Below, one piece after another: positions 2,286 through 56,062 of a stretch of DNA of 64,000 nt; the first letter of the stretch is position 1, and every line of letters starts with the position of its first letter. The position numbers were made by a program, and so were the translations under genes. Origin of the DNA: an uncultured Candidatus Peribacteria bacterium. GTDB lineage: Bacteria; Patescibacteriota; Gracilibacteria; Peribacterales; Peribacteraceae. The notes under the pieces were generated by a model. It was not told the origin of the DNA. It did no database searches and was given only the letters and a program-made list of their open reading frames with translations. The DNA lies in the NCBI GenBank assembly GCA_964628805.1, contig CAZVOK010000001.1:44504-108503 (forward strand), read 5' to 3'.

Positions 2286-2299
2286 ACGCCGCGAAGCGG

Positions 2300-2370: not shown

Positions 2371-2380
2371 CGAAGCAGAG

Positions 2381-9864: not shown

Positions 9865-9936
9865 GGGATTGGGGGTTAGGGATTAGGGATTGGGAATGGA
9901 AGATTTCCAAAACACAGAGCGCGTTTTCTACGCGCG
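9864..9936. repeat. GGGATT-word arm starting at the glgP stop, followed by a GC-hairpin module
   Basis: gagggattgggggttagggattagggattgggaatgg comes first. Then cagagcgcgttttctacgcgcg, whose 19-mer core is identical to 43565..43587. Confidence 0.7.
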
Positions 9937-11410: not shown

Positions 11411-11447
11411 AATCATTCTCAATTTTCCATTCTCAATTTTCAATTTC
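11411..11447. repeat. Word-repeat arm (TTCTCAATTTTC words); complementary word set at 18233..18303
   Basis: aatcattctcaattttccattctcaattttcaatttc abuts the stop of the 11446..12312 gene. Confidence 0.6.
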
Positions 11448-22441: not shown

Positions 22442-22503
22442 TTTGTATACAAAATTGATACAAAATATATTCATATTTATACAAATTACCGCGTGTACAT
22501 CAT

Positions 22504-22533
22504 CGTAGGGGCACGGCTTGCCGTGCCCCTACG
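22504..22533. terminator. Hairpin between convergent genes (13-bp stem)
   Basis: cgtaggggcacgg cttg ccgtgcccctacg. No clear T-tract on either strand. Confidence 0.4.
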
Positions 22534-22549
22534 GGTTACACATTCACAA

Positions 22550-24106: not shown

Positions 24107-24450
24107 AGAATCATAGGGCAGGAAATGAGGGTTCCCGCCATTCTCTGCAAGTCCTAATTCTCTAGCGTTTCAAGCCTGTGTTCACGTGTGAGCGAATGCA
24201 TGCGTGTCGAAGAGTGGAAATCTAAAGAGAGAGAATGGTGAAAGTAGGCAAAGTATACACACCATATATGGTGTATGCGAGTGCAGAGGGTTTTGCTCTT
24301 CTTAGAGGCCCAAATTCCTTTTTATGGTTACCCGTTCCATTGGGTCGTAGAACTGATTTTTTGGCTTCCATTAAAGCCTTATGCCATTTTCCAAAAGCAA
24401 ATGCTCAGTCAAGCCTTAAACGCTCGCGAAGAAACCTCTTTCATGGAGCC

Positions 24451-27400: not shown

Positions 27401-27768
27401 CTACTCCCGGCTCCGGGAATATTTGTGAGCTTCCGGAAGTCCCGGCGAAAGCTACAAAAGTAAAAGCAACGAGCACCTCCAAATCGTCAGCTGCTAAAAA
27501 GACAACTATAAAAAAGAGCACTGCAGCCAAAAAGGCTCCAGTGAAAGTGAGTATGATGTACCACAATGTGTCTGCTGAGGAAGAAGGGGTAGGTGCGGGG
27601 AGCGGGGGATTACTAATGCAAGGATCACTGTTTTCGGGTTCCTTTCCTAGTTCAGGTGCTCCTTTAGGCCAGTCATTTCTCTTTATGACTGCCCTGCTTT
27701 TAGGCGTAGGAGCCACTCATTTTTATAACAAAAACGCCCTCAGATATAATAAAGAGGCATCTACTTGA
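24451..27768 (+). CDS. Surface-anchored extracellular nuclease: four lamin-tail domains, a PKD-like domain, an SNase (thermonuclease) domain and a C-terminal TM anchor
   Basis: LTD signatures: VISEVMWMG..DEWVELAG, SAWVEIVSG, GKEWVELWN, LEEWVEVFN. PKD-like: WGDGE..HQYEYFIPGSYTLTSTI. SNase: RVLDGDTFEV..VRLIGVDAPE..YGRILAYVY. The ATG at 24451 precedes the signal/TM segment WALLFFTFCALLTVFL. Confidence 0.85.
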   Translation: MPIRLQPSPSWALLFFTFCALLTVFLSRVQAKVVISEVMWMGSDLSTADEWVELAGLGSGTGNTTDISGFTLTSLTSTKGEVPLIKFGTGTSIGSGQFIVISRYAEGASRLLSAPFQAVSDLSLPNTKLLLRLRDTQGQVVDEVDDGVGEPFAGTNVSGQPKASMQRKDLWAAGTVKDNWMSSVLSLGFDEGFSLFGTPGFSPIEAIIEDTEPPVEVTGLAAEGKEEDTGVTVKASWTPGSSTDLVVQELTLTASGTLLVSAELPATSTGLTIPAVPLYQSYQLTVRSIDDDSNISFGSSVTFEPLLKTINPNTFSIQLGEVLPRSLDENSAWVEIVSGTSATLDLSGWALESSGSTFNLTGSIEAGEYRSFSMDPGVLSHTGTLLLTYSGSTMDQVAIPLLPPGVSYRKADSSWGPECMPSPGSAGEDLVWHPEFSVETLSNASGSFLIKSFIQLDETMISPIECAVDWGDGEMVNGCNEHQYEYFIPGSYTLTSTIVNYCGTTVIQQENVEFMRVTGSISSSLSVSSSSTSSSASFSSVSSSSSQVSSGSPSSSGASGGGGTTGSSASSFSSSNSSVLSSGEGLVLYAAFPNPKGTDTGKEWVELWNKSSSILFTNGWSLATKTTTKPLPESTILPGEVLRISIPTGMSLGNTDGVVKLKDPHGAEVSVLTWPTAGDDEEISFLLSSSQPATVTRVLDGDTFEVTLQNDPLQKLQKVRLIGVDAPELTSKDSKELGYANESKKYTSDLIENKKIELQFDTRKKDAYGRILAYVYTEDGQFLQKNLLERGFARVYLASEFQKKADFQAFESTAKELGVGVWGISSKSSSKSSVLSSKSSSQSSLTEEEIVEQKIGSGALIITEIYSHPKKSGTGVMELEEWVEVFNASDEPIDLSFVFFSKSPSDTKKYKIQSGSVVDPQSYEVIFPQSSGLKLNNDGGELSLKNFDGSFVEYILYPKIKEGNAYADMSDFDVRTNWCLTLQPTPGSGNICELPEVPAKATKVKATSTSKSSAAKKTTIKKSTAAKKAPVKVSMMYHNVSAEEEGVGAGSGGLLMQGSLFSGSFPSSGAPLGQSFLFMTALLLGVGATHFYNKNALRYNKEAST

Positions 27769-27798
27769 CGAATTGTCATTTATGAGTAGCATTTGGCA

Positions 27799-29199
27799 AT
27801 GTCTAGCCTAAAAAACACTCCACCGGCAGATCTCATAGATTCTTCTCTTCCCAGTAAAGAAGTTGTAGAAACTGTTCGAGGCGTTCTTCAAAATATAGAA
27901 GAACAAATTTCTCAGACCCGCGAAAGGTTAGGGGAGATATTGGATAGAAATATTTTCAATGCGGAGATGGCCGAACTTCAGGTGCAGATACTCGGAGTAA
28001 GAGACAAGATTTTTCATGTTATTCATCAGTATCAGGATAGGAACCGGGCATTTGGAGAGGCAGAAGCGGCTATCCAAGAATGGGCTTTGTCTGATCCCGA
28101 TGCAAAAGAAGGCTTGGATGAGTTTATGCAAATAAGCCAGCAGGAAAGAGAGAAAGAGAATAAGGATATGGCTGATCTTGCTGCTTTAGCTATTGAGCTT
28201 CAGCAAAAGTTGGAGAAAGCCTTTGTATCTACCACAAGTCAGAACAAAAAAGCCCTAGAGAAGCATCATGAGGTATCTGTGAATGCTTTGGTAGGATTGT
28301 TTACCAAATTGGGAGGTACAACTACTGAGGAAGAATTAAAGGAATATATTTTCAGTCCTGATGAATCAAAGCTTGAGGAAATTCTCCTGAGCCTTCCTCA
28401 CGAAGATACCAAGCGTAGAGCTAGGGTCTTGCTCAGTTCTTACAAGGCAAAGCTTGTAAGCAGGGACCCAAAAATCGCTGATCTGAGATCCGCCACTATC
28501 GGTTCCAGAATGATGAAAGCGGTAACAGCCACAGACGCAGGTTTGCAGAAAACGCGTTGGCTGGATTCCATCACGGACAAAGAAAAAAATGTGGCGTACC
28601 GTCAGTCTACGGTAAACGTATACACTGATACTGGTTCACATTTTTATTTCTATGTAGATAAAGATGGCGAGGTAGAAGTGACGTTTGCAAAATTCCCAGG
28701 CCAGCAAAATAGCGACGGTCCCTTGAATAAAGAAAGGGCATTGGCAATGTTACAGGCGGAGCAGAATCCTGATGATAAGAGTGTTCCCACATCTTCTGTT
28801 ATTTATGGACATCGATATGAGGAAAACGAAATACAAGATTCTCTGAAAGAAATGGTCAGTGGAGGCAATGTGGTTCTGGATTGCGAAATACTTGTAGACC
28901 CAAAGCCTGTACGTGTCTTCTTGAAGAAGAATGCAGCTGGTGCATTTGAGTATGTGGCACCTACGGAAAATCATCCAAATCTTCCTGCGGCAGAATTAGT
29001 AGCTGCAAACCCTGCCAAATATCTTCGTCCTACGAGCCTCCGTTTCCTCATGAATGGAATGGCTACGAAAGTACTCACTCAGGCAGAGCCACCTGAAGAT
29101 TCTGTTGCTCCTCCTCCTACACATACGGATTCTCATGTTGGAACAAACGGAGTAGCGCACACTGATCACTCTGCTCACGTTCCTGCACATGCTGAATAG
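27799..29199 (+). CDS. Orphan protein A (466 aa), coiled-coil N-terminus, His-rich C-terminal tail
   Basis: Long ORF with no motif recognised. The tail reads THTDSHVGTNGVAHTDHSAHVPAHAE. It overlaps the next gene by 11 nt. The ORF track starts at a TTG (27793). Confidence 0.7.
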   Translation: MSSLKNTPPADLIDSSLPSKEVVETVRGVLQNIEEQISQTRERLGEILDRNIFNAEMAELQVQILGVRDKIFHVIHQYQDRNRAFGEAEAAIQEWALSDPDAKEGLDEFMQISQQEREKENKDMADLAALAIELQQKLEKAFVSTTSQNKKALEKHHEVSVNALVGLFTKLGGTTTEEELKEYIFSPDESKLEEILLSLPHEDTKRRARVLLSSYKAKLVSRDPKIADLRSATIGSRMMKAVTATDAGLQKTRWLDSITDKEKNVAYRQSTVNVYTDTGSHFYFYVDKDGEVEVTFAKFPGQQNSDGPLNKERALAMLQAEQNPDDKSVPTSSVIYGHRYEENEIQDSLKEMVSGGNVVLDCEILVDPKPVRVFLKKNAAGAFEYVAPTENHPNLPAAELVAANPAKYLRPTSLRFLMNGMATKVLTQAEPPEDSVAPPPTHTDSHVGTNGVAHTDHSAHVPAHAE

Positions 29200-30217
29200 T
29201 GCTGAATCTGAAGGGCGACTGGATAGATTTAAAGACACGGTTTTACGCACGAAGATTGTTCAGTCTTCAGTGAGTTCTACTGTGCCAGGTGTACAAAAAG
29301 TAATGGGCCGTTCTTTGTTGAATTTGCTCTGGATGGGGGATCGACATATTCCTGCCAATGCTTCTGAAGCTGAAAAATCTTTTTATAAATCACACGAAAA
29401 AGTCACACCTGAAGCATTAGATCTTTGGGTACAGGCGTGGGCGGGGAATATTTATGTACTGAAAAAAACTGCCAGAGACACGTGGATGGATATTGTACGG
29501 AAGAAAAATTTACTGCCCGAAGGTGGCGACATGTCTGCTCTTATGCAAAATCCTCAAACACTGGATAAAATTTATGAGGGCTTGAGGGAGTTATTGGAAG
29601 AACGGATGTCGCATCAGCCAGTAGTCGCAACACCTCAAGGGCATTCTTCTCCGGTGGCTGCACCAGCTGCAGACACTCATCATACTGCACCTGTAGATAC
29701 ACATGGCCAGACTTCTGCGACAGGATCAGATGTTGTGCCGCTGGTTGTGGCCCCAGTTGACCACGGGAATTCAGGAAGTGATGCATCCCATTCGAGTGCT
29801 GTTAATGTGCATCATAATGTGGCTCCAGATGGAAATGCTTCTCATTCGGCGCAAGGACCAGCCCATGAAGAAGAAGGCCACGGCGGTCATAAAGAGCATG
29901 AAGAACATGAGGAGCACGACGAGCATCATGATGATCATGGAGACCATAGCCATGACCACGCCCACGATGCCCACCACGGGCCATCGCCAGAGCTTCAAAA
30001 GTTGATTGCAAAGGCCAATAATGGTTCCTGGAGCAGTATGGGTCTGCGCGCACTATTGCAACTTCGGGGTGCTATTCCAAACGATTCTCCTCACCATCCA
30101 AAACCCAAGTTTCCTCGCTTTGTAAGGGCTCCAAAGGCAAAAGCGACACATTCTGATCCACATGGACATGGCGGCCATGATGATCATGGTCATGGAGGGG
30201 GTCACGGCCATCATTAA
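29189..30217 (+). CDS. Orphan protein B (342 aa), extremely His-rich
   Basis: Internal HEEEGHGGHKEHEEHEEHDEHHDDHGDHSHDHAHDAHHG and the C-terminal tail HSDPHGHGGHDDHGHGGGHGHH. Confidence 0.7.
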   Translation: MLNSAESEGRLDRFKDTVLRTKIVQSSVSSTVPGVQKVMGRSLLNLLWMGDRHIPANASEAEKSFYKSHEKVTPEALDLWVQAWAGNIYVLKKTARDTWMDIVRKKNLLPEGGDMSALMQNPQTLDKIYEGLRELLEERMSHQPVVATPQGHSSPVAAPAADTHHTAPVDTHGQTSATGSDVVPLVVAPVDHGNSGSDASHSSAVNVHHNVAPDGNASHSAQGPAHEEEGHGGHKEHEEHEEHDEHHDDHGDHSHDHAHDAHHGPSPELQKLIAKANNGSWSSMGLRALLQLRGAIPNDSPHHPKPKFPRFVRAPKAKATHSDPHGHGGHDDHGHGGGHGHH

Positions 30218-30271
30218 GAGGTTTTGCCCATATTGTATGAAGAGCCGTTTTGTGATACAATAAACAGATTT

Positions 30272-33103
30272 ATGTCTGCAGATACACACACATCATCAGC
30301 CGGAGGTGACACTGATATGGAGGATCTGGACATAGGAAGTGAGCTGCCTGGGCATGTAAAAACTATAGCTACTCGCACCGAAGAGGAGATGCTTTTGAAG
30401 CATATGCTTGGTATAGATTTGCATGACAGCGAAAAGCAGATTGCCGCAAAAGTGTTTGAAGTAGTGAGCAGAGTGCGTGAGGATTTGGATGAGCATCATT
30501 TCACTGAACAGCTTGAAAAAAAGCTTACCGCAGCATTTCGTCGGATTAATTATCATGATCCAGAACATCATGGCGCTGTAGAATCGCATGATATTCTGAA
30601 AATCAGAGCTATTGCTGATGCAGTGAAAGAGAGCATTCCAGCAGATGTGCTCTACGAAATTTTCAGAACGCAGTCTTCTGTATTGGATAAAGATGCAGTA
30701 GTACCACCTGATACTGTTCGTGAAAATATTGGAACTTTAGGAGAGGTAAGTGTCGATCTGTCGCATCCTTTTTGGAAAGGAAAAAAGAAATTTACTGTCC
30801 ATGAGTTGGAGCATGAGTTTACGACCAAGGAACTTAAGAGCATTGGCATTTCCATTCCTGGACGTTCACCTAAATATAAGCTGACACTTGCCGAAGCGCA
30901 GGCGATTGCTGCGACAAATTTTGGTATTGTCAGTCCGGACAATGGCTACGGAAAATTTGAGGAAACAATTACAGACCATACGGGACTGGTAGGTATGTAC
31001 AGTGTGGACATCGATGCATTGATTTCAGCAGAAACTACGAATGACGCTCCTGCTGCGAATTTACAAAACTTGCGTATCGGCTCCTGCGATGCGGCGCAGC
31101 TAACATCACTTCTTTTATTTGAAGTGAACGGTGAGTACCCCTACTGGAATCTGCTTGTGAGATCTCCTGCTAATAGCTCTCCGCATCATTTAGTACCTGC
31201 GACTGGCACCCCACCTGCTCCTGTGGCAGCTTATATCGCCTCAGAAGTGTTTGGCTATTTGGGCAAAGATAGAATGAGGCCTATTGCCGGTGAAAATATC
31301 CAGCTGCATGCTCTGCATTCAAAAATGGTAGATAGCACGGATAATCAAGATCGTACTGCATTGTATGAAGGAAGTGATAATCCAATGGGCGCAGCTATTG
31401 CTTATGGACTCATGAATAAGCATCCGGATTTGAAAAATCTTTTGAAGGTCAATCACGATACGAAAAAATCAAAAAAAGAGATAGGTGTCTTGAGACAGAA
31501 GAAAAATTTGTCCGATTTGATTCAAAAAATACCTGCAGGACTCACTGTCACATCTGCTCTCTCACGGAGGCAGGCACAGGATATTCCTGGGCAAGTAAGT
31601 GCTGAAACCACAAAGTTAGATGCTGCCATTCAGTCCGCTCGTATAGCGGCTGCAGGCTCTAAAACTTATCCTCCAGTAAGTCTTACAGTGAACGGAAAAA
31701 CAGTTGGTCCGTTTGATCCTTTATCGCCTCGCGCGGACAGAGCGATTCAATGGTTGGAAGCACAGCAAGAAGAAGCAGAAAAGGCATCTAAAGAGTATGT
31801 AAAAATTGAAGGCCATGTAAAGGCAGTGGCAGAAACTTTATTTCTTTTGAATGAGAAGGAGGCAAAAAAAATGGATATTGTACAATTGTTCAAATTTACC
31901 CCTGCAGTACCTGCTTCTCCCGCTACCGCAACTACTCCTGCTATTCCCGCCACTCCCGCAACGGTCACGATTGATGATACGAAATGGGTATCTGGCTTGA
32001 ATGTTAACTCCATGCTGGCAAAGATAAAAACTATTGCAGATTTCGATGTACAAGAGCCTTCAAAAATTCAGGATGAAATCGACAAAAAAGAAAAGGCATT
32101 AAAAGATGCAAAAAATGCTAAAGGCCCAATTGGCGATAATGCCCAGTTCTTTATAGTAAAAGAATACTTCAAAAAGTACAAAGGCATGACAGATGTAGAT
32201 GCCAAAAAAGCAGCAAATTACCTGCTTGTCAGAAGTACTTTGGATGAAGAGGTAAGCCAGACTGCAGAGGAGTTGATTGAAAGTGTATACGGACATGATC
32301 CAGATAGAGGAGATCAGTTCTGGAACTGGTGGGAAAATACGGGGAATTTTTCTTTCGATGCCGAACGTAGAAGTCGTCGTATTGTGTATCAGGTGGCAAA
32401 AGCTGCAGGCGTCACTGTAGGCAGCGACCAAGACTCATGGGGAGTACGTTGGGAAAGCGCAAAATATCCAGCTTTGCTAAAAGCATATTTCTCAATAAAG
32501 AAACTAGCAGAAGGCGAAGGCCCTGCTGCTATTCGTTTGCAGAATACGAAGTATGTGAAAGCTCAGCTGAAAGAATTATCGAAGGCTATTTTCTCTAAAA
32601 ATATTGAAGACATGGCTCAGTATTTGGGTCCGGATGCTGCAGAAGCAGTACGCAAATTTCCTACGAAAGAAGAAAAGAGAAAAATGTTCAAGAAATTACT
32701 CGAAGGTGATGCACCTGCGAAGAAAGCAGACGAAATCCATCACATCATCGAGCGTGCGGATCAGAAGACGGACTTCTGGAGACGCAAGGTGGCACCATGG
32801 TCCTGGAAAGCTCCTACATATGCCGCAGTAGGAACTGCCAAAACTGGCTATAAAGTAGTGAAAGGTGTGTATTACGATGCTCCAAAATGGGCAATTACAA
32901 ATACTTATGACAAAGTCGCTAAGCCAACAATCAATGTTATAAAGAAGCGTGGTAAAGCAGTGTTTCTTGGAGCACTGATTGGAACATTTGTTTTCCCCGG
33001 AGTTGGTACTGCGGTAGGAACAGCAGTAGGTTCTGTATGGAAAACTAAAACTGATGCAGGTCATGCTTCTGATCACGGACATGGCCACGGTCATGGACAT
33101 TAA
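30272..33103 (+). CDS. Orphan protein C (943 aa), tail-anchored by a Gly-zipper TM segment followed by a (His-Gly)n tail
   Basis: No motif recognised. The C-terminus reads AVFLGALIGTFVFPGVGTAVGTAVGSVWKTKTDAGHASDHGHGHGHGH. The ORF track begins at 30224; the first ATG after the stop of gene B with sensible spacing is at 30272. Confidence 0.7.
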   Translation: MSADTHTSSAGGDTDMEDLDIGSELPGHVKTIATRTEEEMLLKHMLGIDLHDSEKQIAAKVFEVVSRVREDLDEHHFTEQLEKKLTAAFRRINYHDPEHHGAVESHDILKIRAIADAVKESIPADVLYEIFRTQSSVLDKDAVVPPDTVRENIGTLGEVSVDLSHPFWKGKKKFTVHELEHEFTTKELKSIGISIPGRSPKYKLTLAEAQAIAATNFGIVSPDNGYGKFEETITDHTGLVGMYSVDIDALISAETTNDAPAANLQNLRIGSCDAAQLTSLLLFEVNGEYPYWNLLVRSPANSSPHHLVPATGTPPAPVAAYIASEVFGYLGKDRMRPIAGENIQLHALHSKMVDSTDNQDRTALYEGSDNPMGAAIAYGLMNKHPDLKNLLKVNHDTKKSKKEIGVLRQKKNLSDLIQKIPAGLTVTSALSRRQAQDIPGQVSAETTKLDAAIQSARIAAAGSKTYPPVSLTVNGKTVGPFDPLSPRADRAIQWLEAQQEEAEKASKEYVKIEGHVKAVAETLFLLNEKEAKKMDIVQLFKFTPAVPASPATATTPAIPATPATVTIDDTKWVSGLNVNSMLAKIKTIADFDVQEPSKIQDEIDKKEKALKDAKNAKGPIGDNAQFFIVKEYFKKYKGMTDVDAKKAANYLLVRSTLDEEVSQTAEELIESVYGHDPDRGDQFWNWWENTGNFSFDAERRSRRIVYQVAKAAGVTVGSDQDSWGVRWESAKYPALLKAYFSIKKLAEGEGPAAIRLQNTKYVKAQLKELSKAIFSKNIEDMAQYLGPDAAEAVRKFPTKEEKRKMFKKLLEGDAPAKKADEIHHIIERADQKTDFWRRKVAPWSWKAPTYAAVGTAKTGYKVVKGVYYDAPKWAITNTYDKVAKPTINVIKKRGKAVFLGALIGTFVFPGVGTAVGTAVGSVWKTKTDAGHASDHGHGHGHGH

Positions 33104-33116
33104 TCCCTAGAATTTT

Positions 33117-33491
33117 ATGAACACCCACACCCTCTCCCCCACAGGCTTCCCACACATCTTCAGCCAGATGGTCAGTGAGGCTGCCATGGAACTTCCTGCA
33201 CTTACGAGTGCCAAGGACATGCAGTTCCTGCGTGAAGTGACGGCTACGTGCATCGATGCCTTTTGGGCGAATTATCTTTCACTGCAGACTCCGGAGTCGC
33301 AGGCAGAGTACGAAGATGCGTGCGAGAAAGAAGATACAGACAGAATCATCGCTTGGATGACCGCACATGCAAACTTCAAAGCTGATGCGAATGCTGAAGC
33401 ACAGGGGGCAAAAATCTTGGAAGAAATTGCCGCCAAGCTTCCTGAGGCTATGAAAGCAGATTACGCAGATCTTCATTCTTCTCAGTTATGA
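33117..33491 (+). CDS. Orphan protein D (124 aa), small and acidic
   Basis: A 4-nt ATGA overlap joins it to the next gene. No motif. Confidence 0.6.
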   Translation: MNTHTLSPTGFPHIFSQMVSEAAMELPALTSAKDMQFLREVTATCIDAFWANYLSLQTPESQAEYEDACEKEDTDRIIAWMTAHANFKADANAEAQGAKILEEIAAKLPEAMKADYADLHSSQL

Positions 33492-35695
33492 AAACTCTTC
33501 TCCACACGTACGGCCTTGGAAAAATTTCTCTAAAAGAGAAGAGGCTCTGCCATCTGGATTTGCCTACTTCTACGGAAGTGGCGAATAAGATTAAAGATGC
33601 AGGTGAGTACTTGAAGAGAAATATTCAGAGCTTCACAGAAGCTACGGGTGAGATAGTTGGTGCATCTGGAAAATTTTTAGTGGATCTTCCTTCTGGTCTT
33701 GCAAATGGTTTGGTTGAGGCTTGGAAGGAACAAGTGCCATCTATTTCTAAAGAGGATGTCTATAAATTCCTCTACAAGGCGTCTGAATTCTTTACGGGAA
33801 TTCCTTACTTGGGAGAGAAAGTGAATCAGTATTTTAAGGGAAAGGTGAATTTTGAAAAATTGAAGCACTTGGTAGAGCATGCCAACTGGATTGCTGTCTT
33901 TGAGCGTTATCAGGATGTCCTTACAGGACAGAGCGCTGATGATGTAAAGAAGCTTGCAGTGAAAGAAAGAGGTCTTGGAAATCACGGAATGTCTGAAGTT
34001 TTGGATTTCATGGCAACGCTGGATATACAAGACCGGCAGAGGATTTTCGCAGAGTATGTAGGCAAATACATTCCTGAAAATCTTCAGAGTCTTCCACAGG
34101 GGATTGCCCAAGATAAAAATGCAGATTTGAAGCAGAAGTTTGATGCTATCAATACTGCTGGAAAAGTAGGTACCTTCACGAAGGCAATGGGTGGAATGCT
34201 TGGTGTTACCAACAAAGATGAGCTGACAAAAGATCCAGAAGCTCTGAAGATTGCAAAGAGAGCTTTGGAAGGCCGCTATGGACTTGGCGGACCGAATCCT
34301 ACCATTACGAATGGTCTTCTGAATGATTACAAGGGCACGCTCCGTTTCCATCAGTTAGCGGGACTCAAGGCAGTGCGCACGTCTCCTGATGAATTAAAAA
34401 AACAGGCTCCAGATTCTCTTTTCAAAGGAGCGTTGGAACTTGGTGTTATTGATGCTTCGGACTTGCAGGTGCTCAGCAAAGACTTGGCTGATCTGGAAGA
34501 CTTGAAGCAGAAAGCCATTGGCGATGCGCGTAAAAAAGTAAATGTAGTACGTGGCGATATGGATAAGGAATTGCAGAAAGAAGCAAGCACATACATTGAT
34601 GTGTGGAACAACATGGGTGGCGCTGAAAAACTGATTTTGATGGCTGGAGGAATTTATGCAGCGTACAAGTACAAGACTGCAGCCATGCTTGTGGCGCTTG
34701 CTTACTTTGGAAGGAAGTTTCTTTCTAAAGATGATGATCCACTGCACACAGCTTCTGTATGGATGCAGAACGGTGTGAAAAAAGGACAAAATGCATTCAA
34801 TAAACAGTTAGGAATTACAGTGGGAGATGAAGTGGCTACCATGAATTCGCAGGTGACTACCATGGCTGAATTTATTACCAAGCTGCACCCACGTGAGACC
34901 AAAGTGCTTACAGATCAAGCTGCAGTTCTTACCATGATGTACGAGATGCCGCTGAAAGTACTTTCTGCAGGATTCAACATGTGCGGAGGCTTTGGTGAGT
35001 GGTGCTTGGCTGCCCAGCCAGGAAGCGCATTTGATACGCAGATGAAAATAATTGCCGAAAGAAACGGAGTGAAAAATGGCTACAAGCAGCTCTTCTGCGG
35101 ACGCGGAACACAGGTGCAGCCGTGGTTGAATGAGACTATCAGTTTCCTCTTTTATAAGCGTGCAGCGAAAGATCCTGCAAACAAAGAAGATGTAGAAATT
35201 GTAGAAAATGCCATCGCGAAATTTCCTTCTGGTACTTCTCCACAACATGAGTTTGGAAAGCCGGAAAATCAGGAGGCCGCACAGGCGTACATGCGTTTGG
35301 TACGCAAGGGTCACAATGGTGCTGCTGGGGATAATCAGACGATTGGAAGTTTTATTGAAGATGAATTGGGTGCAGAAAATACAAATGTTTCAAAGGAAAA
35401 CAAGGAAAAAGAAAGAAAGCGCGAGATGATGCAAAAACTGCAGCTGAAAATAAAAGAAATGGAAAATAAGGATGAATACAGAAAATATGCCCTGGGAGAT
35501 TTCCATGCTCGCATCTCCGGAGATTTTGTGGAGTACGCAAGTAATTTTGCGGAAATAAGAATCATTGCGAAGAGTCCTGCAGAAAAGTTTTTGAAGAAAT
35601 CCAATAAAGAAATTTTTGAGGCATATAAAAAGTTCCATGATCAAACCATGGCGCTGGCGCCTGGTACGGAACTCGTTAATAAAGATCCTTTGTAA
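33488..35695 (+). CDS. Orphan protein E (735 aa) with a central hydrophobic hairpin
   Basis: The only hydrophobic stretch is KLILMAGGIYAAYKYKTAAMLVALAYFG. The C-terminus has a Lys/Glu-rich coiled coil. No motif. Confidence 0.7.
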   Translation: MKTLLHTYGLGKISLKEKRLCHLDLPTSTEVANKIKDAGEYLKRNIQSFTEATGEIVGASGKFLVDLPSGLANGLVEAWKEQVPSISKEDVYKFLYKASEFFTGIPYLGEKVNQYFKGKVNFEKLKHLVEHANWIAVFERYQDVLTGQSADDVKKLAVKERGLGNHGMSEVLDFMATLDIQDRQRIFAEYVGKYIPENLQSLPQGIAQDKNADLKQKFDAINTAGKVGTFTKAMGGMLGVTNKDELTKDPEALKIAKRALEGRYGLGGPNPTITNGLLNDYKGTLRFHQLAGLKAVRTSPDELKKQAPDSLFKGALELGVIDASDLQVLSKDLADLEDLKQKAIGDARKKVNVVRGDMDKELQKEASTYIDVWNNMGGAEKLILMAGGIYAAYKYKTAAMLVALAYFGRKFLSKDDDPLHTASVWMQNGVKKGQNAFNKQLGITVGDEVATMNSQVTTMAEFITKLHPRETKVLTDQAAVLTMMYEMPLKVLSAGFNMCGGFGEWCLAAQPGSAFDTQMKIIAERNGVKNGYKQLFCGRGTQVQPWLNETISFLFYKRAAKDPANKEDVEIVENAIAKFPSGTSPQHEFGKPENQEAAQAYMRLVRKGHNGAAGDNQTIGSFIEDELGAENTNVSKENKEKERKREMMQKLQLKIKEMENKDEYRKYALGDFHARISGDFVEYASNFAEIRIIAKSPAEKFLKKSNKEIFEAYKKFHDQTMALAPGTELVNKDPL

Positions 35696-35701
35696 CGCAA
35701 A

Positions 35702-35735
35702 GCGCGGAGTCCAGGGACTCCGCGCGGGGGTTTTG
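35702..35735. terminator. Terminator hairpin between convergent genes
   Basis: gcgcggagtc cagg gactccgcgc is followed by gggggttttg on the plus strand, and is preceded by an A/T stretch that serves the minus strand. Confidence 0.6.
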
Positions 35736-35742
35736 ACTGTAG

Positions 35743-36672
35743 CTACTTGATGCGCTTAAAGAACAGGGGTGCCGCCTGCAGGCCGTTGGCCGGCCCCGGC
35801 GATCCCGTGACGGGGTTGAGCTTGGGCAGCGGCTTCTTGCCGATGGTCTTCTGGATGAGCAGGGACGTCCAGTTCTTCGCCCACTCCTTCGTCTCTTCCT
35901 CAGGCCAGTTGTAAGGCAACCGGACGCCAATGTCGTTGTAGGGCTCCGTCTTGCCCTTGTCTGTCAGTTCGCCGTCGAAGTCCACGATCACGGCGGTAAT
36001 GCCTTTGTCGTTCTCGCAGAAGTAGGTGACAGCCTTCACTTTCTTGACCGTCAGGGTACCGGGCGCACCGGTCTTGGTGTAGCGGGTTTCCACCTCGTTT
36101 TTCCACACGTCCTTCGTTGCCTGGTCTAGCAGGCTTTCTTCCACCAGCAAGTTGAAGTACGGGTCGTCCCCGGCCGACAACGAGTTGGTCTGCTCCACGG
36201 CGTTGTGGTGTTGAACGGCGTGGACGAGCTTGGTCAGCGGGGACTCCAGTTGTTGGAACCGGGGCAGGAGGAAGAACCCGAACGTCACCACCATCGCCCC
36301 TGCCATCAGGAAGCTTAGGCACCGCTTGTACTGGTGACCGCCAGCCGCATGAGTGACGCCGTGGTTGTTCAGTGTCCAGCCGTTCACCCAGGCGGCAACT
36401 GCAGCCGTCAGCAGCAGTCCGCCGAAGACCCAGACCACGATGCAGGAAGCCGCGTGGGCCACGGTCAATGCCCAGGACAGCCACCGCCAGAAGGGCTTGT
36501 CGGGAATGTCCGAGGGCATGAGGACCGGGGCCAGCTCACAGATCAGGGCCCAGGAGCAGGCGAAGTACGCCAGCGACCAGAAGGCCGTGGTCAGCTGCAT
36601 CCGGGTTACCCCCACCCACGCGAACACGAACCCCGCCACGATCGCCAGCACCGTCAGGATGAGCATCGTCAT
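35743..36672 (-). CDS. High-GC membrane protein (four N-terminal TM segments plus a soluble C-terminal domain), compositionally foreign
   Basis: 309-aa ORF with strongly GC3-biased codons. Several spurious overlapping ORFs on both strands are typical of high-GC DNA. GAGGTG lies 7 nt upstream of the ATG. Confidence 0.7.
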   Translation of the reverse strand: MTMLILTVLAIVAGFVFAWVGVTRMQLTTAFWSLAYFACSWALICELAPVLMPSDIPDKPFWRWLSWALTVAHAASCIVVWVFGGLLLTAAVAAWVNGWTLNNHGVTHAAGGHQYKRCLSFLMAGAMVVTFGFFLLPRFQQLESPLTKLVHAVQHHNAVEQTNSLSAGDDPYFNLLVEESLLDQATKDVWKNEVETRYTKTGAPGTLTVKKVKAVTYFCENDKGITAVIVDFDGELTDKGKTEPYNDIGVRLPYNWPEEETKEWAKNWTSLLIQKTIGKKPLPKLNPVTGSPGPANGLQAAPLFFKRIK

Positions 36673-36718
36673 CGGAGCACCTCGTAAAAGTAGCCGGTAG
36701 GGTCAAGGAACCTTGTTA

Positions 36719-36746
36719 AATATACAATAAAACGTCAATAAGTCAA
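36719..36746 (-). promoter_or_regulatory. Sigma70-like promoter, TTGACT-16 nt-TATATT (minus strand), for the 35743..36672 gene
   Basis: The reverse complement reads ttgact tattgacgttttattg tatatt, about 45 nt upstream of the ATG. Confidence 0.4.
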
Positions 36747-36833
36747 TATAAACCCATAATCACCAATCTCGTCAAACATGGCTAAAAACCCCATTTTCCG
36801 CTATAATATCTAGAAATCTTCACAAAAACCCAC

Positions 36834-37190
36834 ATGCCAAAAACATCTACAAAAAAGGCAGGTACCAAGGTGAAACATGCTGAAGCAGACCCTATGCAGG
36901 ATGTCTACAACACCTTGATGTTTCAGATAGAACCGGAACTGACTAGCTGGGTACTGCCAGTGCTGAATACTTTGTATGAAACAGAAACAGAGGAGGAAAA
37001 AGAAGAGCGTCGGGGGCGTTACGAGCGTGCGTTTGAAATGTATAACCAGCGTTTTGAAGAGCTCATGAACCTGTGGAAGAGCGAGCTTCATGCATTCAAG
37101 AAAAATGCAGTGAGTGAGTACAAAGTGCAAGAAGCTTCCCGTGAGGAAAAAATTCTCCAGAGTCTGGATCAATCCCTTTCATCTTTCTAA
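36834..37190 (+). CDS. Orphan protein F (118 aa), basic N-terminus and acidic helical body
   Basis: A 2-nt gap separates it from the next gene. A TATAAT box at 36802-36807 lies upstream. No motif. Confidence 0.6.
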   Translation: MPKTSTKKAGTKVKHAEADPMQDVYNTLMFQIEPELTSWVLPVLNTLYETETEEEKEERRGRYERAFEMYNQRFEELMNLWKSELHAFKKNAVSEYKVQEASREEKILQSLDQSLSSF

Positions 37191-37192
37191 GT

Positions 37193-39892
37193 ATGTGTAC
37201 TTTTTCTTCCTCACAGGCACGTGCCTTCTCTGGAAAAGAACAGAGGCTGGTGTTCTTTAAAGCGCCTGATGCACAGCCTTCGCCTGAAGCACAGCAGCTG
37301 AAAAATGCGTTGGACAAAATCCAAAAAGTCAATTCGCCGAAAGCAGAAGAGCTGAAAAAACTTACAGAGGAAATTATTACGTTGGATAATTCAAAATTTG
37401 AAGTTGAAGCAGCAATATTTATGAATGAACTGAGAAAATCATTGCCGGCAGAAGATAAACTTATGGCGCTGCCAGACAGATTGACTAATAAAAAACATTT
37501 ATTGGATCTGATTAAAGTAATGGCAGCTTCTCCAGTTTCCATGCCTGGAACAAGCCCTGAACAGAAACCTTTGAATCCAAATACAGCTCCTGCCGCTCCA
37601 AAGAATGCAGCGGATGTGTTGGATAAAAAAATGCGAGATCAGATGCAGAAGGATAAGCCAACCGAAGGTGATGACATGTCTAAGACAGTGAAAGATTTTT
37701 TGGCCGAAACGGATCCACGTGTGGAGGCACAGACTGCACTACTTCAGAAGCTCAATGCAAAATATACTGTGCCAATGACCTTGGATCGTCAGGGCTTGAG
37801 GGATCTTTTGAACGATGTGAAATGGATCAATAATCAGCAGAAGAGATCTTTGCAGACTCCTGCAAAAGCTCCAGAAGCTGTGCGCGAAGGTCCAAATATT
37901 CTCCAGATTGGAAAAACCTACAGACGCGAATGGGAGAAAGTCCGCAGTATCATTGGTGGAAACGGAGCTTTAAATAGGCCCAATGGACGCATTACCGCAG
38001 CTCTTCGTCCGGTGCTTGCACAGCTTATGTGTTTGCAGAATATGATTAAGAATCACGTGCAGAATGTTCCAGGATATCCACAGACAGCCACCTGGAAAAT
38101 GCCGGATATAGAAGAGCTCATGCACAAAAATAACTTGGGCAAGTATTCGCTCATCTGGAGTTCTGCTGCGAATGAGATTCAGAACTTCCGTGAAGTGAAG
38201 AAAGGTGAAGTAGTGGTGAATGATTTTGATAAGCAGACAAAGCAGTGGACGCGTTACACGGCCGAGCAAGATGGACCTGCTGGTGCTGTAATGGCATCTA
38301 TGAAAGGAAATGTGGAGTCCCCAATGTTTGTAGGAACTAGAAAGGAATCCGAACAGTGGCGCCGCAAGCAGGAAAATCTTCCTCCGCTGGATGAACAGAA
38401 CTGGCAGTGGCAGAATGGCCAGGGACAGTATGGCCGCGAGCCACTGAATACGCTGCCGCCTACGTCTCGCAAGGGAAATACTGCGCAGCCGCTTCCATTT
38501 AATCCGAAGGACAGTGTGAATGCTCCCGTGCAACGCATGCCTAGCGCTATGCCAGCTGCGCCTTCCCGTCCTCGTGATGGAGGCATTCGTGGTGTTCGTT
38601 CTGCTGCACCTATGGATGAATCTTCATCTACTGGAAGTGTGGAGCTCAATGGTGCATCGATGGCTCCTGATTTCCAGAGAGAGCCTGATGCAAAAAATCT
38701 GGAAAGCAAGCAGCGCTCACTGGGACTTCGCATGGGCGAGCTCAAAAATCGTGCGTTCTTGAGAACGGTGTCCGGTCAGCCTGCTGTGTACTCGTTCAAT
38801 CATGATCCAAATAACTTCACGTCCCGCATTCTTCTCACGCTTCCTCCGGAGTACGGATCCCAAGTGATCGACTTTGATACCATCCGAGGGACTGTGACGG
38901 TATCTGGAAATACCGGTGCGAATGCATACGAACTTTTGGTGAATGCCGGAGTGGATATTTCCACTACAGAGATGGGCCGCGCCCAGGGCTCCGGCCGCGC
39001 ACTGCGTCCCACACAGGGGTACGATGTGGTGACGCTCCGCTTCACGCGTCCTGGCCGATTCAATTTCTCCACCCGCGGAGTGAATGACCGCATGCAGTAC
39101 AGTGGTCCTGTGGAAGTGGTGCAGGATGTGTATCAGGAGCAGAGAAAATTTGTGGAAGCGCAGTCGGTTGCCGTGGATAAATGGGCACCGCTGCAGTCCG
39201 GTCTGCCCGGCGTGCTCTACCGCTACAACTCCAGCGACCGTACGTTCTATGCCCAGACGAATGATCCTTCCACAGGTGCGAAAGTGTTCATGAAGATCAG
39301 TCCGGATTATTACTGGAGCAAGTGTCCGGAGCCGGATTTTTCCAATGTGGATAAGGCGAGGGAGACTGCTCACGTTTCACTCCTTACGAAGATCGATGCA
39401 GTATCTTTCGCAAAGCTCAGTCCTGACGTGCAGAAGAATCTTCAAGACGCTTTGAACGAAGCAAAAACGCTCAAGCCAGATAGCAATGGAGTGCTCCGCA
39501 CAAGCAATGGCCGTGAGTTCACGGTAGCTGATGGAAAACTCCTGACGCGCGGCAATCAGAAGGAAGGAACATATTCCGCCAAGTGGAGGAACGTGGCGAA
39601 TTTGGAGGAGGTGTATGTAGGAGAAGCGAATCCTGTGCGCAGCGGAACGGAGGCGATTGCGGCTGTAAATTTGAAAAAATCATCCTCACCGGAAACAACT
39701 GGTGAAATCCAACTTCAGTTGAAAACTGTGGAAACAGACATTAAATCGGCAGAGAAAGAAATTGAAGATCTAAAAAAGCAAATTGGTACTGATGGAGACA
39801 TCCGCGAGTTAATGCTCCAGATTGAAAAAGTGCAGGACAAAATCAAAAAGCTCCGCCAAAAGAAAGATGCGCTGATGGAAAAAGGCAAATAA
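37193..39892 (+). CDS. Orphan protein G (899 aa), soluble, C-terminal coiled coil
   Basis: Long uninterrupted ORF with no TM segment, no signal peptide and no motif recognised. Confidence 0.7.
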   Translation: MCTFSSSQARAFSGKEQRLVFFKAPDAQPSPEAQQLKNALDKIQKVNSPKAEELKKLTEEIITLDNSKFEVEAAIFMNELRKSLPAEDKLMALPDRLTNKKHLLDLIKVMAASPVSMPGTSPEQKPLNPNTAPAAPKNAADVLDKKMRDQMQKDKPTEGDDMSKTVKDFLAETDPRVEAQTALLQKLNAKYTVPMTLDRQGLRDLLNDVKWINNQQKRSLQTPAKAPEAVREGPNILQIGKTYRREWEKVRSIIGGNGALNRPNGRITAALRPVLAQLMCLQNMIKNHVQNVPGYPQTATWKMPDIEELMHKNNLGKYSLIWSSAANEIQNFREVKKGEVVVNDFDKQTKQWTRYTAEQDGPAGAVMASMKGNVESPMFVGTRKESEQWRRKQENLPPLDEQNWQWQNGQGQYGREPLNTLPPTSRKGNTAQPLPFNPKDSVNAPVQRMPSAMPAAPSRPRDGGIRGVRSAAPMDESSSTGSVELNGASMAPDFQREPDAKNLESKQRSLGLRMGELKNRAFLRTVSGQPAVYSFNHDPNNFTSRILLTLPPEYGSQVIDFDTIRGTVTVSGNTGANAYELLVNAGVDISTTEMGRAQGSGRALRPTQGYDVVTLRFTRPGRFNFSTRGVNDRMQYSGPVEVVQDVYQEQRKFVEAQSVAVDKWAPLQSGLPGVLYRYNSSDRTFYAQTNDPSTGAKVFMKISPDYYWSKCPEPDFSNVDKARETAHVSLLTKIDAVSFAKLSPDVQKNLQDALNEAKTLKPDSNGVLRTSNGREFTVADGKLLTRGNQKEGTYSAKWRNVANLEEVYVGEANPVRSGTEAIAAVNLKKSSSPETTGEIQLQLKTVETDIKSAEKEIEDLKKQIGTDGDIRELMLQIEKVQDKIKKLRQKKDALMEKGK

Positions 39893-39893
39893 A

Positions 39894-39945
39894 AATCCCC
39901 GCACCTTGGTGCGGGGATTGCCCGAGCCGTAGCTCGGTTGTTTGC
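39894..39945. terminator. Back-to-back terminator hairpins between convergent genes
   Basis: aatccccgcac cttg gtgcggggatt is preceded by aaaaa, giving a T-tract on the minus strand. ccgagc cgta gctcgg is followed by ttgtttg on the plus strand. Confidence 0.65.
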
Positions 39946-39963
39946 TGTGGTTCTAGTGCCCCT

Positions 39964-41220
39964 TTAGCGGACCTTGACCACCTCACGGACGTGCCAGGGG
40001 ATGAACCCCCGGCGGAACTTGTAGGTGTATTCCCCGTACGGCGCCCCGTAGACGGGGCTGATCTGGACGTAGCCGAACTGGTACGGCCCTACCGTCACCG
40101 GCGGGGTGGGCAACGGAGTGCCCACTTCCAGCTGGTAGTGGAGGTGGATGGTGTCACCCTTGGCCTCCAGGGCCTTGATCCGGTCCGCGTTCTTCTTCAT
40201 CCACTTCTCCAGGGACTCCTTCTCCTCCTTCTGCTGGCGGAGGATCTGTTCGGCGCTGGCCTTCAGGTCGGCCAGGGCGCGGTCGGCGTTGTCCAACCGG
40301 TTATTGAGTGTGCTGCTCAGGCCACGCAGCGTGTTGCCCACGCCGTCGACCTTGAGGGACACGTCGTCCACCTTGGTGTTAAGGTTGCTGAGCGTGCTGG
40401 CCTGCGCCTCCTGCTGGCTCCGGATGGCCTTCAGCTCCTGGTCATGGTTGTTTTGCTTGTCGCGGATCGCCTTCAGTTCCTGCAGCACCCGGTTGTTGCC
40501 GGTGGTCACGTCGCTGGTGGTGGCCACGCCCGTGAGGGCAGTAGTCACATCGGCCTTGGTAGGCAGGGCCGGCAGGTTGCGGGTGTTCACGTCTGTGTTC
40601 ACCAGCCGCTGCATGGCTTCCAGCTCCACCTTGGCCTTCTGGAGCTTGCCCGTGGCGATGGCCAGGGCCTCGTCCTTCTCCGGCTTCTTCGGCTTCATCT
40701 TGGCCAGGTCGGCCTCGGCCTGGGTCTTACTGGTCTGCACCTCGCCCTTCTTCTTGCTGATCTCGGCGATCTTGTTGGTGAGGGACTGCCAGGCGGCCTC
40801 TGCGGCCTTGTACTCGGCCTCGGCCTTGTCGTAGAGCTTCTGGGCCAGATCGATCATGTCCGCGTCCGGAGGGGTGGCCGCCTTCGTGGTGGCCAAGGTG
40901 GCCGCCTTCTTCTTCATCAGGTTGTCCGCGTCGGACTTCCTGATGGCGGCCTTGTTGAGCTCGTCGCCGACCGTCTGGAACTCGTTCTCCAGCCGCTTCT
41001 CCTCGGCGTTCAGTGTCTGGACCTTGCCGGTCAGCTGGCTGAGGTTCTGATTGAAGTGGTCCCACTTGGCCTTTTCGGCCTTGTAGTTCTCCACCTCCTG
41101 CTCGTACTTCTTCCTCAGGATCATCTCGCCGTCGCTCGGCACCGTCGACTGGGCACCCACCATGGGCGCCCCGATCAGCGTGGCCGCGAGGGCCATCAAC
41201 TTGAACCGGTTCATCTGCAC
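39964..41220 (-). CDS. High-GC secreted coiled-coil protein, compositionally foreign
   Basis: 418 aa. Signal peptide MQMNRFKLMALAATLIGAPMVGAQS, about 300 aa of coiled coil, and a compact C-terminal domain (GPYQFGYVQISPVYGAPYGEYTYKF). GAGGAG lies 6 nt upstream of the ATG. Confidence 0.7.
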   Translation of the reverse strand: MQMNRFKLMALAATLIGAPMVGAQSTVPSDGEMILRKKYEQEVENYKAEKAKWDHFNQNLSQLTGKVQTLNAEEKRLENEFQTVGDELNKAAIRKSDADNLMKKKAATLATTKAATPPDADMIDLAQKLYDKAEAEYKAAEAAWQSLTNKIAEISKKKGEVQTSKTQAEADLAKMKPKKPEKDEALAIATGKLQKAKVELEAMQRLVNTDVNTRNLPALPTKADVTTALTGVATTSDVTTGNNRVLQELKAIRDKQNNHDQELKAIRSQQEAQASTLSNLNTKVDDVSLKVDGVGNTLRGLSSTLNNRLDNADRALADLKASAEQILRQQKEEKESLEKWMKKNADRIKALEAKGDTIHLHYQLEVGTPLPTPPVTVGPYQFGYVQISPVYGAPYGEYTYKFRRGFIPWHVREVVKVR

Positions 41221-41569
41221 TCCTCGAGGAAAGGGTCTTACCGTGAGGGTTGTCTAGAATTCCCCACAGCCTCCTCCTTACAGTTTACTTTTATCTGAAT
41301 TGATAACGCCGCTGTGCGTGGCTTGAATACGAAATACTCTTGGGGGTTGTGACAGTAATTATCTGAATGAAGAAACGTTCAACGGTTTGTACTTCTCTGT
41401 ACGAATAAATATAAAGAGGAGGATGTGGGGAGCGGTGGTTTCAAAGGACAAGACACCTATTCTAAGTCTTTTACTGATTATGTCAAGTATCTTTAACACC
41501 TTTAAAACCCTGCTTGTGGCCAAAGATTTGATGCTCTAGGATGCCTGGGATCTCTTTCCTCCTTATTGT

Positions 41570-44767: not shown

Positions 44768-44854
44768 ATTGCTTTGACACTCGCTTCCCATCATGTCTCC
44801 CTCGCACTTCTGAATTTGGAGAGCGCTGCATCACAGTCTAGACTACCCGCCGAT

Positions 44855-50010: not shown

Positions 50011-50099
50011 TCAGCCACATCCCCGACGTTTCTTCCTCTTGGTTAGACTACAAGAGCAAGCAGCGGCGGAATTTCATGCGTTTTTTCTCCCCTTAATTT

Positions 50100-55947: not shown

Positions 55948-56062
55948 AATCCCAAAGGAATGGAAAGGCTTCCTTGCCTTCCTGTGGCTTTTTCTTTATA
56001 TTCTCCGCACTTTAGACTAAGACCGCGGTCTTCCCGCGTGTCTTTCGATTCCCCTCTCCATC

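Follow-up and report, generated by a model that had tools for sequence, protein, structure and literature searches.

What is encoded by a 12-kb block of seven adjacent genes, none assignable to a described protein family, in the genome of an uncultured Candidatus Peribacteria bacterium? The block consists of seven tightly packed plus-strand open reading frames (ORFs), P1 to P7, at positions 27799-39892 of a 64,000-nucleotide (nt) stretch of contig CAZVOK010000001.1 (assembly GCA_964628805.1), here called the window. An earlier note on this DNA had picked out the block as seven orphan genes that might form a multi-protein apparatus or an effector set, for instance for interaction with a host cell. 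A large part of bacterial diversity belongs to the Candidate Phyla Radiation (CPR, or Patescibacteria), whose members lack an assigned function for about half of their genes and whose interactions with other cells are poorly known. Because unannotated gene clusters are common in CPR genomes, the bare observation of seven such genes is unremarkable.

The block is the local version of a position-fixed, extremely fast-evolving locus (the island) in the CPR class Candidatus Peribacteria. The island lies between a gene for a nuclease with lamin-tail (LTD) and SNase domains and carA; it keeps a constant plan through the turnover of its sequences, and it is vertically inherited. Three features go beyond the earlier note: an N-terminal leader of about 25 residues shared by otherwise unrelated large proteins, a strict pairing of small genes with large ones, and recurring C-terminal histidine tails.

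Genomic Context and Conservation of the Locus

The RNase Y gene on the minus strand beside the island encodes a protein 65-87% identical to its counterparts in 80 representative genomes, which with few exceptions are labelled Candidatus Peribacteria, Peribacteraceae or Peregrinibacteria; this comparison identifies the organism as a CPR bacterium of the Candidatus Peribacteria. The same gene served to find 80 related loci, and relatives of the window proteins were sought by iterative hidden Markov model (HMM) searches in the 10 kb beside RNase Y. P1 has relatives in 7 loci, at the same position (20-27% identity), P5 in 9 (18-29%) and P6 in 11; P4 was found in 3 loci in the first searches and later had 6 relatives (33-41%). 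The P3 family, with 15 relatives in other genomes, consists of two BLAST clusters (c3 and c7) united by hhalign with 99% probability. The relatives of these five proteins keep the order and strand seen in the window. In the RNase Y flanks the searches found no relatives of P2, P7, or two opposite-strand genes of the island, which encode a membrane protein of 309 amino acids (aa) and a coiled-coil protein of 418 aa. To call all seven proteins orphans was too strong: P1, P3, P4, P5 and P6 have relatives in Peribacteria (18-46% identity), and P7 has both its N-terminus and a C-terminal domain in common with other proteins. The term holds for P2 only, the sole protein of the seven with no detectable relative.

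Exact-protein look-ups yielded six fuller islands. Four of them, in L082, L083, L085 and L086, are complete, extend to carA and are laid out as in the window, and here too a FAD/NAD oxidoreductase gene follows carA; in L087 the order P1, P2-position gene, P3, P4, P5 matches the window up to the end of the contig. The common plan starts with the LTD-SNase gene, followed by one to four plus-strand genes, a large leader-bearing gene and one or two opposite-strand genes; then come a P6-family gene coupled to a second large leader gene, in most cases an opposite-strand gene of 175-418 aa, and carA.

The LTD-SNase gene, which ends 30 nt before P1 on the same strand, belongs to this conserved neighbourhood, a correction to the earlier note. 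Of the 81 loci searched (including L001, the window's own contig), 73 have a homologue, and nearly all locus maps show it as the first gene beside RNase Y, with unannotated, co-directional large genes next. Its product has a transmembrane-like segment at residues 80-103 (Kyte-Doolittle) and a hydrophobic C-terminal stretch, read from the sequence, and matches the PADLOC candidate model 'SNc+LTD' (2.4e-22).

In a comparison with the window, RNase Y stands at about 78% identity, the ABC exporter at 56%, MutY at 52% and LTD-SNase at 35%, and the island families at 23-46% or below detection. The position after P1, held by P2 in the window, is occupied by non-homologous genes of 271-591 aa in L002/L087, L004, L011 and L012/L084. 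At the place of the 309-aa gene other islands also have an opposite-strand gene, which encodes a membrane protein wherever the sequence was read; the 309-aa protein has no similarity to the positional analogues tested. The place of the 418-aa gene is taken in L082, L085 and L086 by non-homologous opposite-strand genes of 175-411 aa. The large leader proteins found at the same position across genomes have unrelated bodies, falling into at least 16 clusters with no profile-profile link.

One opposite-strand family (c2, about 10 loci) comprises genes of 430-570 aa located before the P6 homologue, with hydrophobic segments in most of the N-termini read. Its member in L057 (2569-3936, plus strand) has a near-threshold SPFH/Band_7 match (E 1.3e-4, 22.5 bits against a cut-off of 23.6). 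An SPFH/Band_7 assignment for the 309-aa window gene was rejected, as this gene has no Pfam match and the L057 analogue is sub-threshold and non-homologous.

L084 has an insertion (8803-9928) that separates LTD-SNase from the P1 homologue and consists of a gene with an ORF6N domain and one with weak similarity to ParE toxins, the sole sign of mobile or conflict genes among the islands examined. Within 24000-41600 of the window no repeat exceeds 37 nt and no pair of repeats is template-like, and the block contains no mobile-element genes.

The N-Terminal Leader

The leader begins with Met and a His/Phe/Ser-rich stretch, continues with the core [RK]-E-[RHK]-R-L-[LIC]-x-[FW], and ends in a Gly/Pro/Ala/Glu-rich stretch; the distance from Met to Glu is 13-17 residues, mostly 14-17. 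In all, 46 proteins begin with it; they come from at least 16 BLAST clusters with no other relationship, and the leader is the only feature common to these otherwise unrelated island families. A leader HMM matches almost solely the first 25 residues of island ORFs. When a regular expression combined with a distance rule was applied to island genes and to control genes from the other side of RNase Y, the leader was found in 44 of 248 island genes versus 2 of 434 controls (odds ratio 47, Fisher p = 1.6e-18). The predicted start codons of the leader genes agree with the gene calls of others and with exact look-ups.

Two of the seven window proteins carry the leader. The N-terminus of P5 begins MKTLLHTYGLGKISLKEKRLCHL; its family has invariant residues at M1, E17, R19 and L20 and conservation of at least 90% at C21. 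P7 begins MCTFSSSQARAFSGKEQRLVFF; over its first 55 residues it shares 37.5% identity with the protein encoded after the P6 homologue of L083, and its residues 13-116 align with family c11 (hhalign E 1.3e-4).

The leader is rich in Arg, Lys and His, and its layout is tag-like, with a Gly/Pro/Ala/Glu-rich linker after it. Judged by the properties of Sec and Tat signals and of the lipobox, the leader has no following hydrophobic h-region: R-R-L-[LC] is succeeded by polar, Pro-rich sequence, so the leader is not a Sec, Tat or lipoprotein signal. A Tat signal read into 'ERRL' was rejected for lack of an h-region, and a lipobox read into 'RLC' because Leu or Ile replaces the Cys in most families.

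Small Acidic Partner Genes

P6 (118 aa, isoelectric point (pI) 5.2, motif ..LYxxLMxxIEPELTT..LYxxETxEE..) belongs to a widespread, uncatalogued family. Each of the 15 distinct P6-family genes in the genome loci is followed by a large gene, at -4 to +5 nt, and by eye about 13 of these 15 large genes begin with a clear leader. An independent set came from a metagenome collection, in which the best-conserved stretch of P6 was sought as a degenerate DNA pattern. A P6-like ORF (at least 113 distinct) is present in 108 of the 120 metagenome loci fetched. Among the matches listed, 93 P6-like genes have a downstream ORF on the same strand, and 76 of these ORFs (82%) begin with the leader; junctions of -4 nt (19 cases) and -1 nt (10 cases) are the most frequent. 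Also among the matches listed, carA adjoins the pair in at least 11 loci, two P6-like genes are present in at least 11, and GC content ranges from 0.34 to 0.72.

In L082 (17724-19881, 19965-20330) and L086 (17328-19804, 19859-20357) a second pair, a P6-like gene coupled to a leader protein of 602-710 aa, lies 4-7 kb beyond carA, and the modules are therefore multi-copy. After it comes a small gene of 97-98 aa that is not P6-like and then a protein with a leader-like N-terminus, so that there may be further partner families besides P6. The P6 family has no Pfam or PDB match; one relative matches WXG100_2, at E 0.04 only.

P4 (124 aa, pI 4.5) stands in the corresponding place before P5, its stop codon overlapping the P5 start (ATGA). 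A P4 homologue is followed by a P5 homologue in L002/L087, L056 and L081, and L170 and L204 contain both families.

The Large Proteins and Their C-Terminal Tails

The genes directly upstream of leader genes often share a second recurring feature. P3, which precedes the P4/P5 pair, ends in a Gly-zipper segment with the character of a tail anchor (weak Pfam Gly-zipper_Omp match, E 0.025), followed by a His-rich tail. In other islands, genes from at least 9 non-homologous clusters that lie directly before leader genes encode a C-terminal Gly-zipper or Trp-rich amphipathic segment and, after it, a His tail whose usual ending is ...GGGHH. P2 is 11% His and ends in ...HGHGGGHGHH.

In the AlphaFold2 (AF2) model of P1 a long helical bundle (residues 19-242) is joined to an alpha/beta domain (254-429) and a disordered, His-containing tail. 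The model, built on a six-sequence alignment with a mean predicted local distance difference test (pLDDT) score of 72 and a predicted template modelling (pTM) score of 0.68, supports P1 as a real protein. The AF2 model of P5 is weak and all-alpha (mean pLDDT 59). It places two helices, residues 378-394 and 396-412, in the moderately hydrophobic hairpin that the family alignment marks as conserved (columns G378, E380, K381, L382, L384, Y406, K410, D417 and P418). Homologues of the island proteins also contain Pro/Glu-rich linkers and low-complexity tails.

P7 searched with phmmer against 1.84 billion representatives returned itself and only two weak matches. Its residues 542-695 form an uncatalogued domain (LPPEYG...FTRPG.F...W..L.SG..Y.Y.S.D..FYA) that is common to, and duplicated in, two remote proteins with no leader, P0020 (653 aa) and P0021 (671 aa).

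The earlier note had reported that none of the seven proteins has a signal peptide and that only two hydrophobic elements exist. A Kyte-Doolittle scan agrees on both points: P1-P7 have no hydrophobic segment in their first 60 residues and so no N-terminal hydrophobic signal, and the P3 segment at residues 896-919 and the P5 hairpin are the sole elements of this kind.

Searches for Known Families and Systems

P1-P7 and the two opposite-strand genes gave nothing significant against Pfam, NCBIfam, PHROGs and PADLOC, and nothing was found among PDB sequences with P5, P7 or the P1, P3, P5 and P6 family alignments. The best PADLOC-DB 2.0 values (5027 models) were E 0.0059 for P6 and E 0.05 for P7, with none for the 309-aa membrane protein; the 418-aa protein has weak matches of coiled-coil type only (Pfam, NCBIfam; best PADLOC E 8.9e-4). 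In PHROGs nothing fell below E 3e-4, and the matches were only to short low-complexity stretches. Foldseek found no match with E below 0.1 for the P1 model in PDB and BFVD and no match for the P5 model. The earlier statement that no family can be assigned by motif extends in this way to profile and structure searches. That note had named two outcomes that would speak against it, placement of the proteins in known, unrelated families and lack of conservation in close relatives; given that no known family matches and that the block is kept in position across related genomes, neither was found.

A genome scan with P5 peptides returned nothing. A word-indexed homologue search with P5 or the P5 alignment gave P5 only, and a composite, low-complexity-filtered profile of P1, P3, P5 and P6 gave nothing; since exact look-ups place relatives in that same collection, the empty result is a failure of candidate retrieval. 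The P3 and P5 proteins had no tblastn match in 50,697 phage records.

Several specific assignments were rejected. A phage or prophage module was discarded on the absence of phage families and phage-genome matches, an empty BFVD search with P1 and the fixed position of the locus across the class. A diversity-generating retroelement target was discarded as well, there being no template or variable repeats and no reverse transcriptase among the window ORFs scanned. There is no WXG100 or LXG match, as type VII substrates would have, for P4, P5, P6, P7 or 47 leader proteins from metagenome and genome loci, and Pfam detects no polymorphic-toxin C-terminal domain in the same 47, among which it finds DUF4116 in two (4e-11) and DnaJ in one (1.7e-9). 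The string 'TDTGS' in P1 does not mark an aspartic protease, as its Asp is not conserved in the P1 family.

Gene Organization and Composition

P1-P7 are called identically by an independent gene caller on a Logan contig from a public run that is 100% identical to the window, and the packing described earlier was reproduced: P1 and P2 overlap by 11 nt and P4 and P5 by the 4 nt of ATGA, with gaps of 54 nt (P2/P3), 13 nt (P3/P4) and 2 nt (P6/P7). The opposite-strand cassette between P5 and P6 is also real and encodes the polytopic 309-aa membrane protein. The idea of one block stands as regards this tight coupling. It does not stand as regards a single unit: strong hairpins lie 3' of P5 and P7, which makes P1-P5 and P6-P7 look like two separate transcription units. 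Promoter-like sites are no more numerous in the region than in shuffles, and the site just 5' of P1 (Table 1) is a consensus match only.

The spot GC values given earlier (46.7% and 35.0%) were reproduced; a lowered GC content of the whole block holds mainly for P1-P5 (0.444) and less for P6-P7 (0.481), with the window at 0.502. Third-position GC (GC3) is 0.35-0.49 in the block except for P4 (0.54), as compared with 0.55-0.69 in carA, rpoC and EF-G. As the earlier note had stated, the island genes do not have the pyrimidine-rich start contexts seen at core genes (carA, rpoC and EF-G compared). The stretches just 5' of these core ATGs (ttctcccctt, cccctctcc and tttcctcctt) are pyrimidine-rich, not purine-rich Shine-Dalgarno sequences.

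Table 1. Features of the island and its borders (positions in the window)
Feature	Position	Strand	Description or evidence
RNase Y gene	22550-24106	-	upstream neighbour
LTD-SNase membrane-anchored nuclease gene	24235-27768	+	1177 aa; Pfam LTD 2e-32, SNase 2.7e-20
Promoter-like site just 5' of P1	27722-27750	+	TTTATA-17-TATAAT, 10/12 consensus matches
P1	27799-29199	+	466 aa
P2	29189-30217	+	342 aa
P3	30272-33103	+	943 aa
P3 tail-anchor / Gly-zipper segment	32957-33028	+	residues 896-919; Kyte-Doolittle 1.9
P3 C-terminal His-rich tail	33047-33100	+	...HASDHGHGHGHGH; after Gly-zipper segment
P4	33117-33491	+	124 aa
P5	33488-35695	+	735 aa
P5 leader	33488-33562	+	MKTLLHTYGLGKISLKEKRLCHLDL; motif HMM 15.9 bits
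P5 conserved helical hairpin	34619-34723	+	residues 378-412, GxEKLxL...YFGxKF..DPL; family alignment, AF2
Palindromic GC-rich hairpin between convergent P5 and membrane-protein gene	35702-35725		10-bp stem, 8 GC pairs
Polytopic membrane protein	35743-36672	-	309 aa; transmembrane-like segments
P6	36834-37190	+	118 aa
P7	37193-39892	+	899 aa
P7 leader	37193-37267	+	MCTFSSSQARAFSGKEQRLVFFKAP; fits anchored leader alignment
P7 domain	38816-39277	+	residues 542-695; common to P0020 (E 1.6e-8) and P0021 (E 6e-6)
Hairpin between convergent P7 and coiled-coil gene	39894-39919		11-bp stem, 7 GC pairs; T run after, minus strand
Protein with signal-peptide-like N-terminus and long coiled coil	39964-41220	-	418 aa; last island gene before carA
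carA start context read	41545-41569		
carA, downstream island border	41570-42673	+	Pfam CPSase_sm_chain 1e-49
rpoC start context read	50075-50099		
EF-G start context read	56038-56062		

Neighbouring Genes in the Window

The remaining window is of housekeeping character, with genes for EF-Tu, EF-G, RpoC, RNase III, CarA, a MutY-like glycosylase and an ABC exporter. Long plus-strand ORFs at 22493-24094, 39991-41298 and 40148-40834 (228-533 aa) are antisense to RNase Y and the 418-aa gene; their composition is biased, and they are shadow ORFs rather than genes. Near the start of the window a 541-aa protein with a serine-recombinase (Resolvase) N-terminal domain (613-2238, plus strand) adjoins tRNA-Ala(GGC) and tRNA-Arg(GCG) (2209-2458, minus strand), and this region may be the edge of an integrated element. 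A 1151-aa protein with a Cys-rich DUF4215 repeat (7e-15; 44774-48229, plus strand) is unrelated to the island; it is of the large exported cysteine-rich kind noted for Peribacteria (PMC4736985). The same genome paper does not mention the island locus, and a literature search combining Patescibacteria with the LTD nuclease found nothing on it.

Possible Functions of the Locus

Our leading reading, held with somewhat less than even confidence, is that a targeting tag (the leader) and small acidic adaptors serve a diversifying membrane or envelope cargo, the large proteins. The leader would act in targeting or assembly. The acidity of P4 and P6 against the basic leader suggests charge complementarity, and hence that P6, and perhaps P4, could be dedicated adaptors or chaperones that bind it. 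The tagged proteins would then be interchangeable cargo, delivered to or through the membrane in which the tail-anchored, His-tailed proteins and the P5 hairpin would be lodged. Any machine able to recognize the tag would be encoded outside the island.

Among known systems, this arrangement resembles the pairs of secretion chaperone and substrate. In type III class I, type VII Lap/LXG and PE/PPE, and type VI Eag pairs a small acidic gene of about 110-125 aa is likewise coupled upstream of a large variable one, several copies occur, and only the N-terminus of the large protein is conserved while the bodies are diverse. P6 agrees with type III class I chaperones in size, acidity and adjacency, with no apparatus genes in the 64-kb window. 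There is, however, no homology to these pairs; the core here is an E-x-R-L motif in about 25 residues, not LXG, PE, PPE or prePAAR, no WXG or YxxxD/E motif was seen on reading, and the window contains no cognate machine. We know of no type III, VI or VII system in CPR bacteria. Two adjacent minus-strand genes 15 kb upstream of the island (11446-13088; 288 and 259 aa) match Pfam T4SS_pilin (PF18895; E 2.6e-6 and 5.2e-7), a hint of a type IV secretion-like system in the genome that would be a candidate reader of the leader.

The encapsulation peptides of microcompartments and the cargo-loading peptides of encapsulins also place a short terminal peptide and a Pro/Gly/Glu linker on unrelated cargo. 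In contrast to these, the motif is unrelated, no shell or encapsulin gene is present in the island or window, and the island cargo is 400-1900 aa, partly membrane-anchored and with no recognizable enzymatic domain. Double-glycine leaders are similar in occupying the N-terminal 15-25 residues or so, with a conserved Glu, hydrophobic positions and in some cases Ala-Gly or Gly-Gly, and an ABC exporter is encoded three genes away. Membership in the double-glycine, peptidase ABC transporter class was nevertheless rejected: the Glu and hydrophobic spacing misses the -8/-7/-4/-2/-1 register, most leaders have no Gly-Gly, the island substrates are far larger, and the window exporter consists of ABC_membrane and ABC_tran only, with no C39 peptidase.

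Several observations weigh against delivery of a tagged cargo. P1-P7 have no Sec or Tat signal; the P3 tail anchor and P5 hairpin would by default leave the bulk of these proteins in the cytoplasm, and the DnaJ domain on one leader protein is normally cytoplasmic. Neither the island nor the adjacent window has a gene for a secretion ATPase, channel or protease, and the exporter, as noted above, has no C39 domain. P4 and P6 show no detectable homology (hhalign probability 0.2), and many leader proteins follow a His-tailed gene or LTD-SNase, not a small acidic gene; for these two reasons one rule of chaperone plus substrate fails to cover the whole island. Finally, fast divergence also fits coiled-coil or disordered structural proteins under weak constraint; such proteins diverge fast even without positive selection.

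The main rival explanation, possible though unlikely, is that the proteins build an intracellular, membrane-attached scaffold or cytoskeleton-like structure. The large helical and coiled-coil proteins would be anchored to the inner face of the membrane, and the leader would serve for docking during assembly and have no part in export. The absence of signal peptides, the tail anchor and helical hairpin, the mostly helical AF2 models of P1 and P5, the Pro/Glu-rich linkers and low-complexity tails of homologues and the DnaJ domain would all suit such a structure. The J-domain protein TopJ is part of the Mycoplasma terminal organelle, whose proteins (HMW1-3, P65 and TopJ) are similarly lineage-specific, large, helical or coiled-coil, Pro- or acidic-rich, signal-less and fast-diverging, in a small genome. 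The analogy is functional only: there is no sequence or Pfam similarity, no match to the EAGR box or any cytoskeletal family, and, to our knowledge, no counterpart of the leader and small-partner pairing in the terminal organelle. One-to-one structural parts would also not usually have unrelated bodies at the same position (at least 16 clusters), and the multi-copy, arrayed pairs look like cargo rather than a fixed structure. Because the same-position bodies are unrelated and the pairs multi-copy, the tag-and-cargo arrangement is ranked above the scaffold.

A bolder form of the tag-and-cargo reading, which we regard as rather unlikely, is that the leader and its P6 partner make up a hitherto unrecognized, Sec-independent export or delivery pathway of Peregrinibacteria-type CPR, serving a fast-diversifying arsenal of very large proteins for contact with a host or neighbour, with the island from LTD-SNase to carA as its main depot.

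The border nuclease resembles ExeM-type enzymes in its lamin-tail and SNase domains and membrane anchoring. ExeM of Shewanella is described as an extracellular nuclease (PMC6085458). The likeness is limited to LTD-SNase, which is tied to P1-P7 by constant adjacency alone.

That the island is instead a variable defence or conflict hotspot, a fixed slot that collects anti-phage or toxin modules with LTD-SNase among them, is improbable. The slot is indeed fixed and its content variable, LTD-SNase fits the PADLOC candidate 'SNc+LTD', ORF6N and ParE-like genes are inserted in L084, and GC3 of the block is below that of core genes. P1-P7, the membrane protein and the coiled-coil protein nevertheless have no match among the PADLOC models, and no nuclease, ATPase, protease, toxin or other enzymatic domain was found in P1-P7 or the 47 leader proteins. 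Gene order and small/large pairing are inherited and class-wide, not a mosaic of unrelated systems; the block has no mobile-element genes, repeats or signs of a diversity-generating retroelement, and P3 and P5 have no phage homologues.

It is very improbable that P1 and other helical proteins are alpha-pore-forming toxins of the ClyA or tripartite AhlABC kind aimed at a host cell: P1 is a long helical bundle with a head-like domain, adjacent genes could make a multi-component toxin, and ClyA (6mrt, 2wcd, 4phq) and AhlC (6r1j) fall within the Foldseek top 40 for P1, but these matches stand among designed helical bundles and are insignificant (E 1.4-3.9, probability <=0.30, query TM-score <=0.23), and P1 has no hydrophobic segment, beta-tongue or hairpin and no sequence or profile similarity to such toxins.

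Significance for Peribacteria

What is concrete and new here is the conserved plan together with the tag and the strict pairing; P1-P7, the P6 family and the leader are covered by no Pfam, NCBIfam, PHROG, PADLOC or PDB family. The locus offers a searchable sequence tag, a partner family and a fixed chromosomal address at which cargo turns over. If the tag is not a signal, the island remains a plain example of a gene plan kept while hardly any sequence is, which is useful for annotating the many metagenomic pairs of P6-like and leader genes, none of which now has a Pfam family; if it is an export or assembly signal, it would allow the effector or surface repertoire of an uncultured lineage to be listed directly and would give a lead to the machine that reads it.

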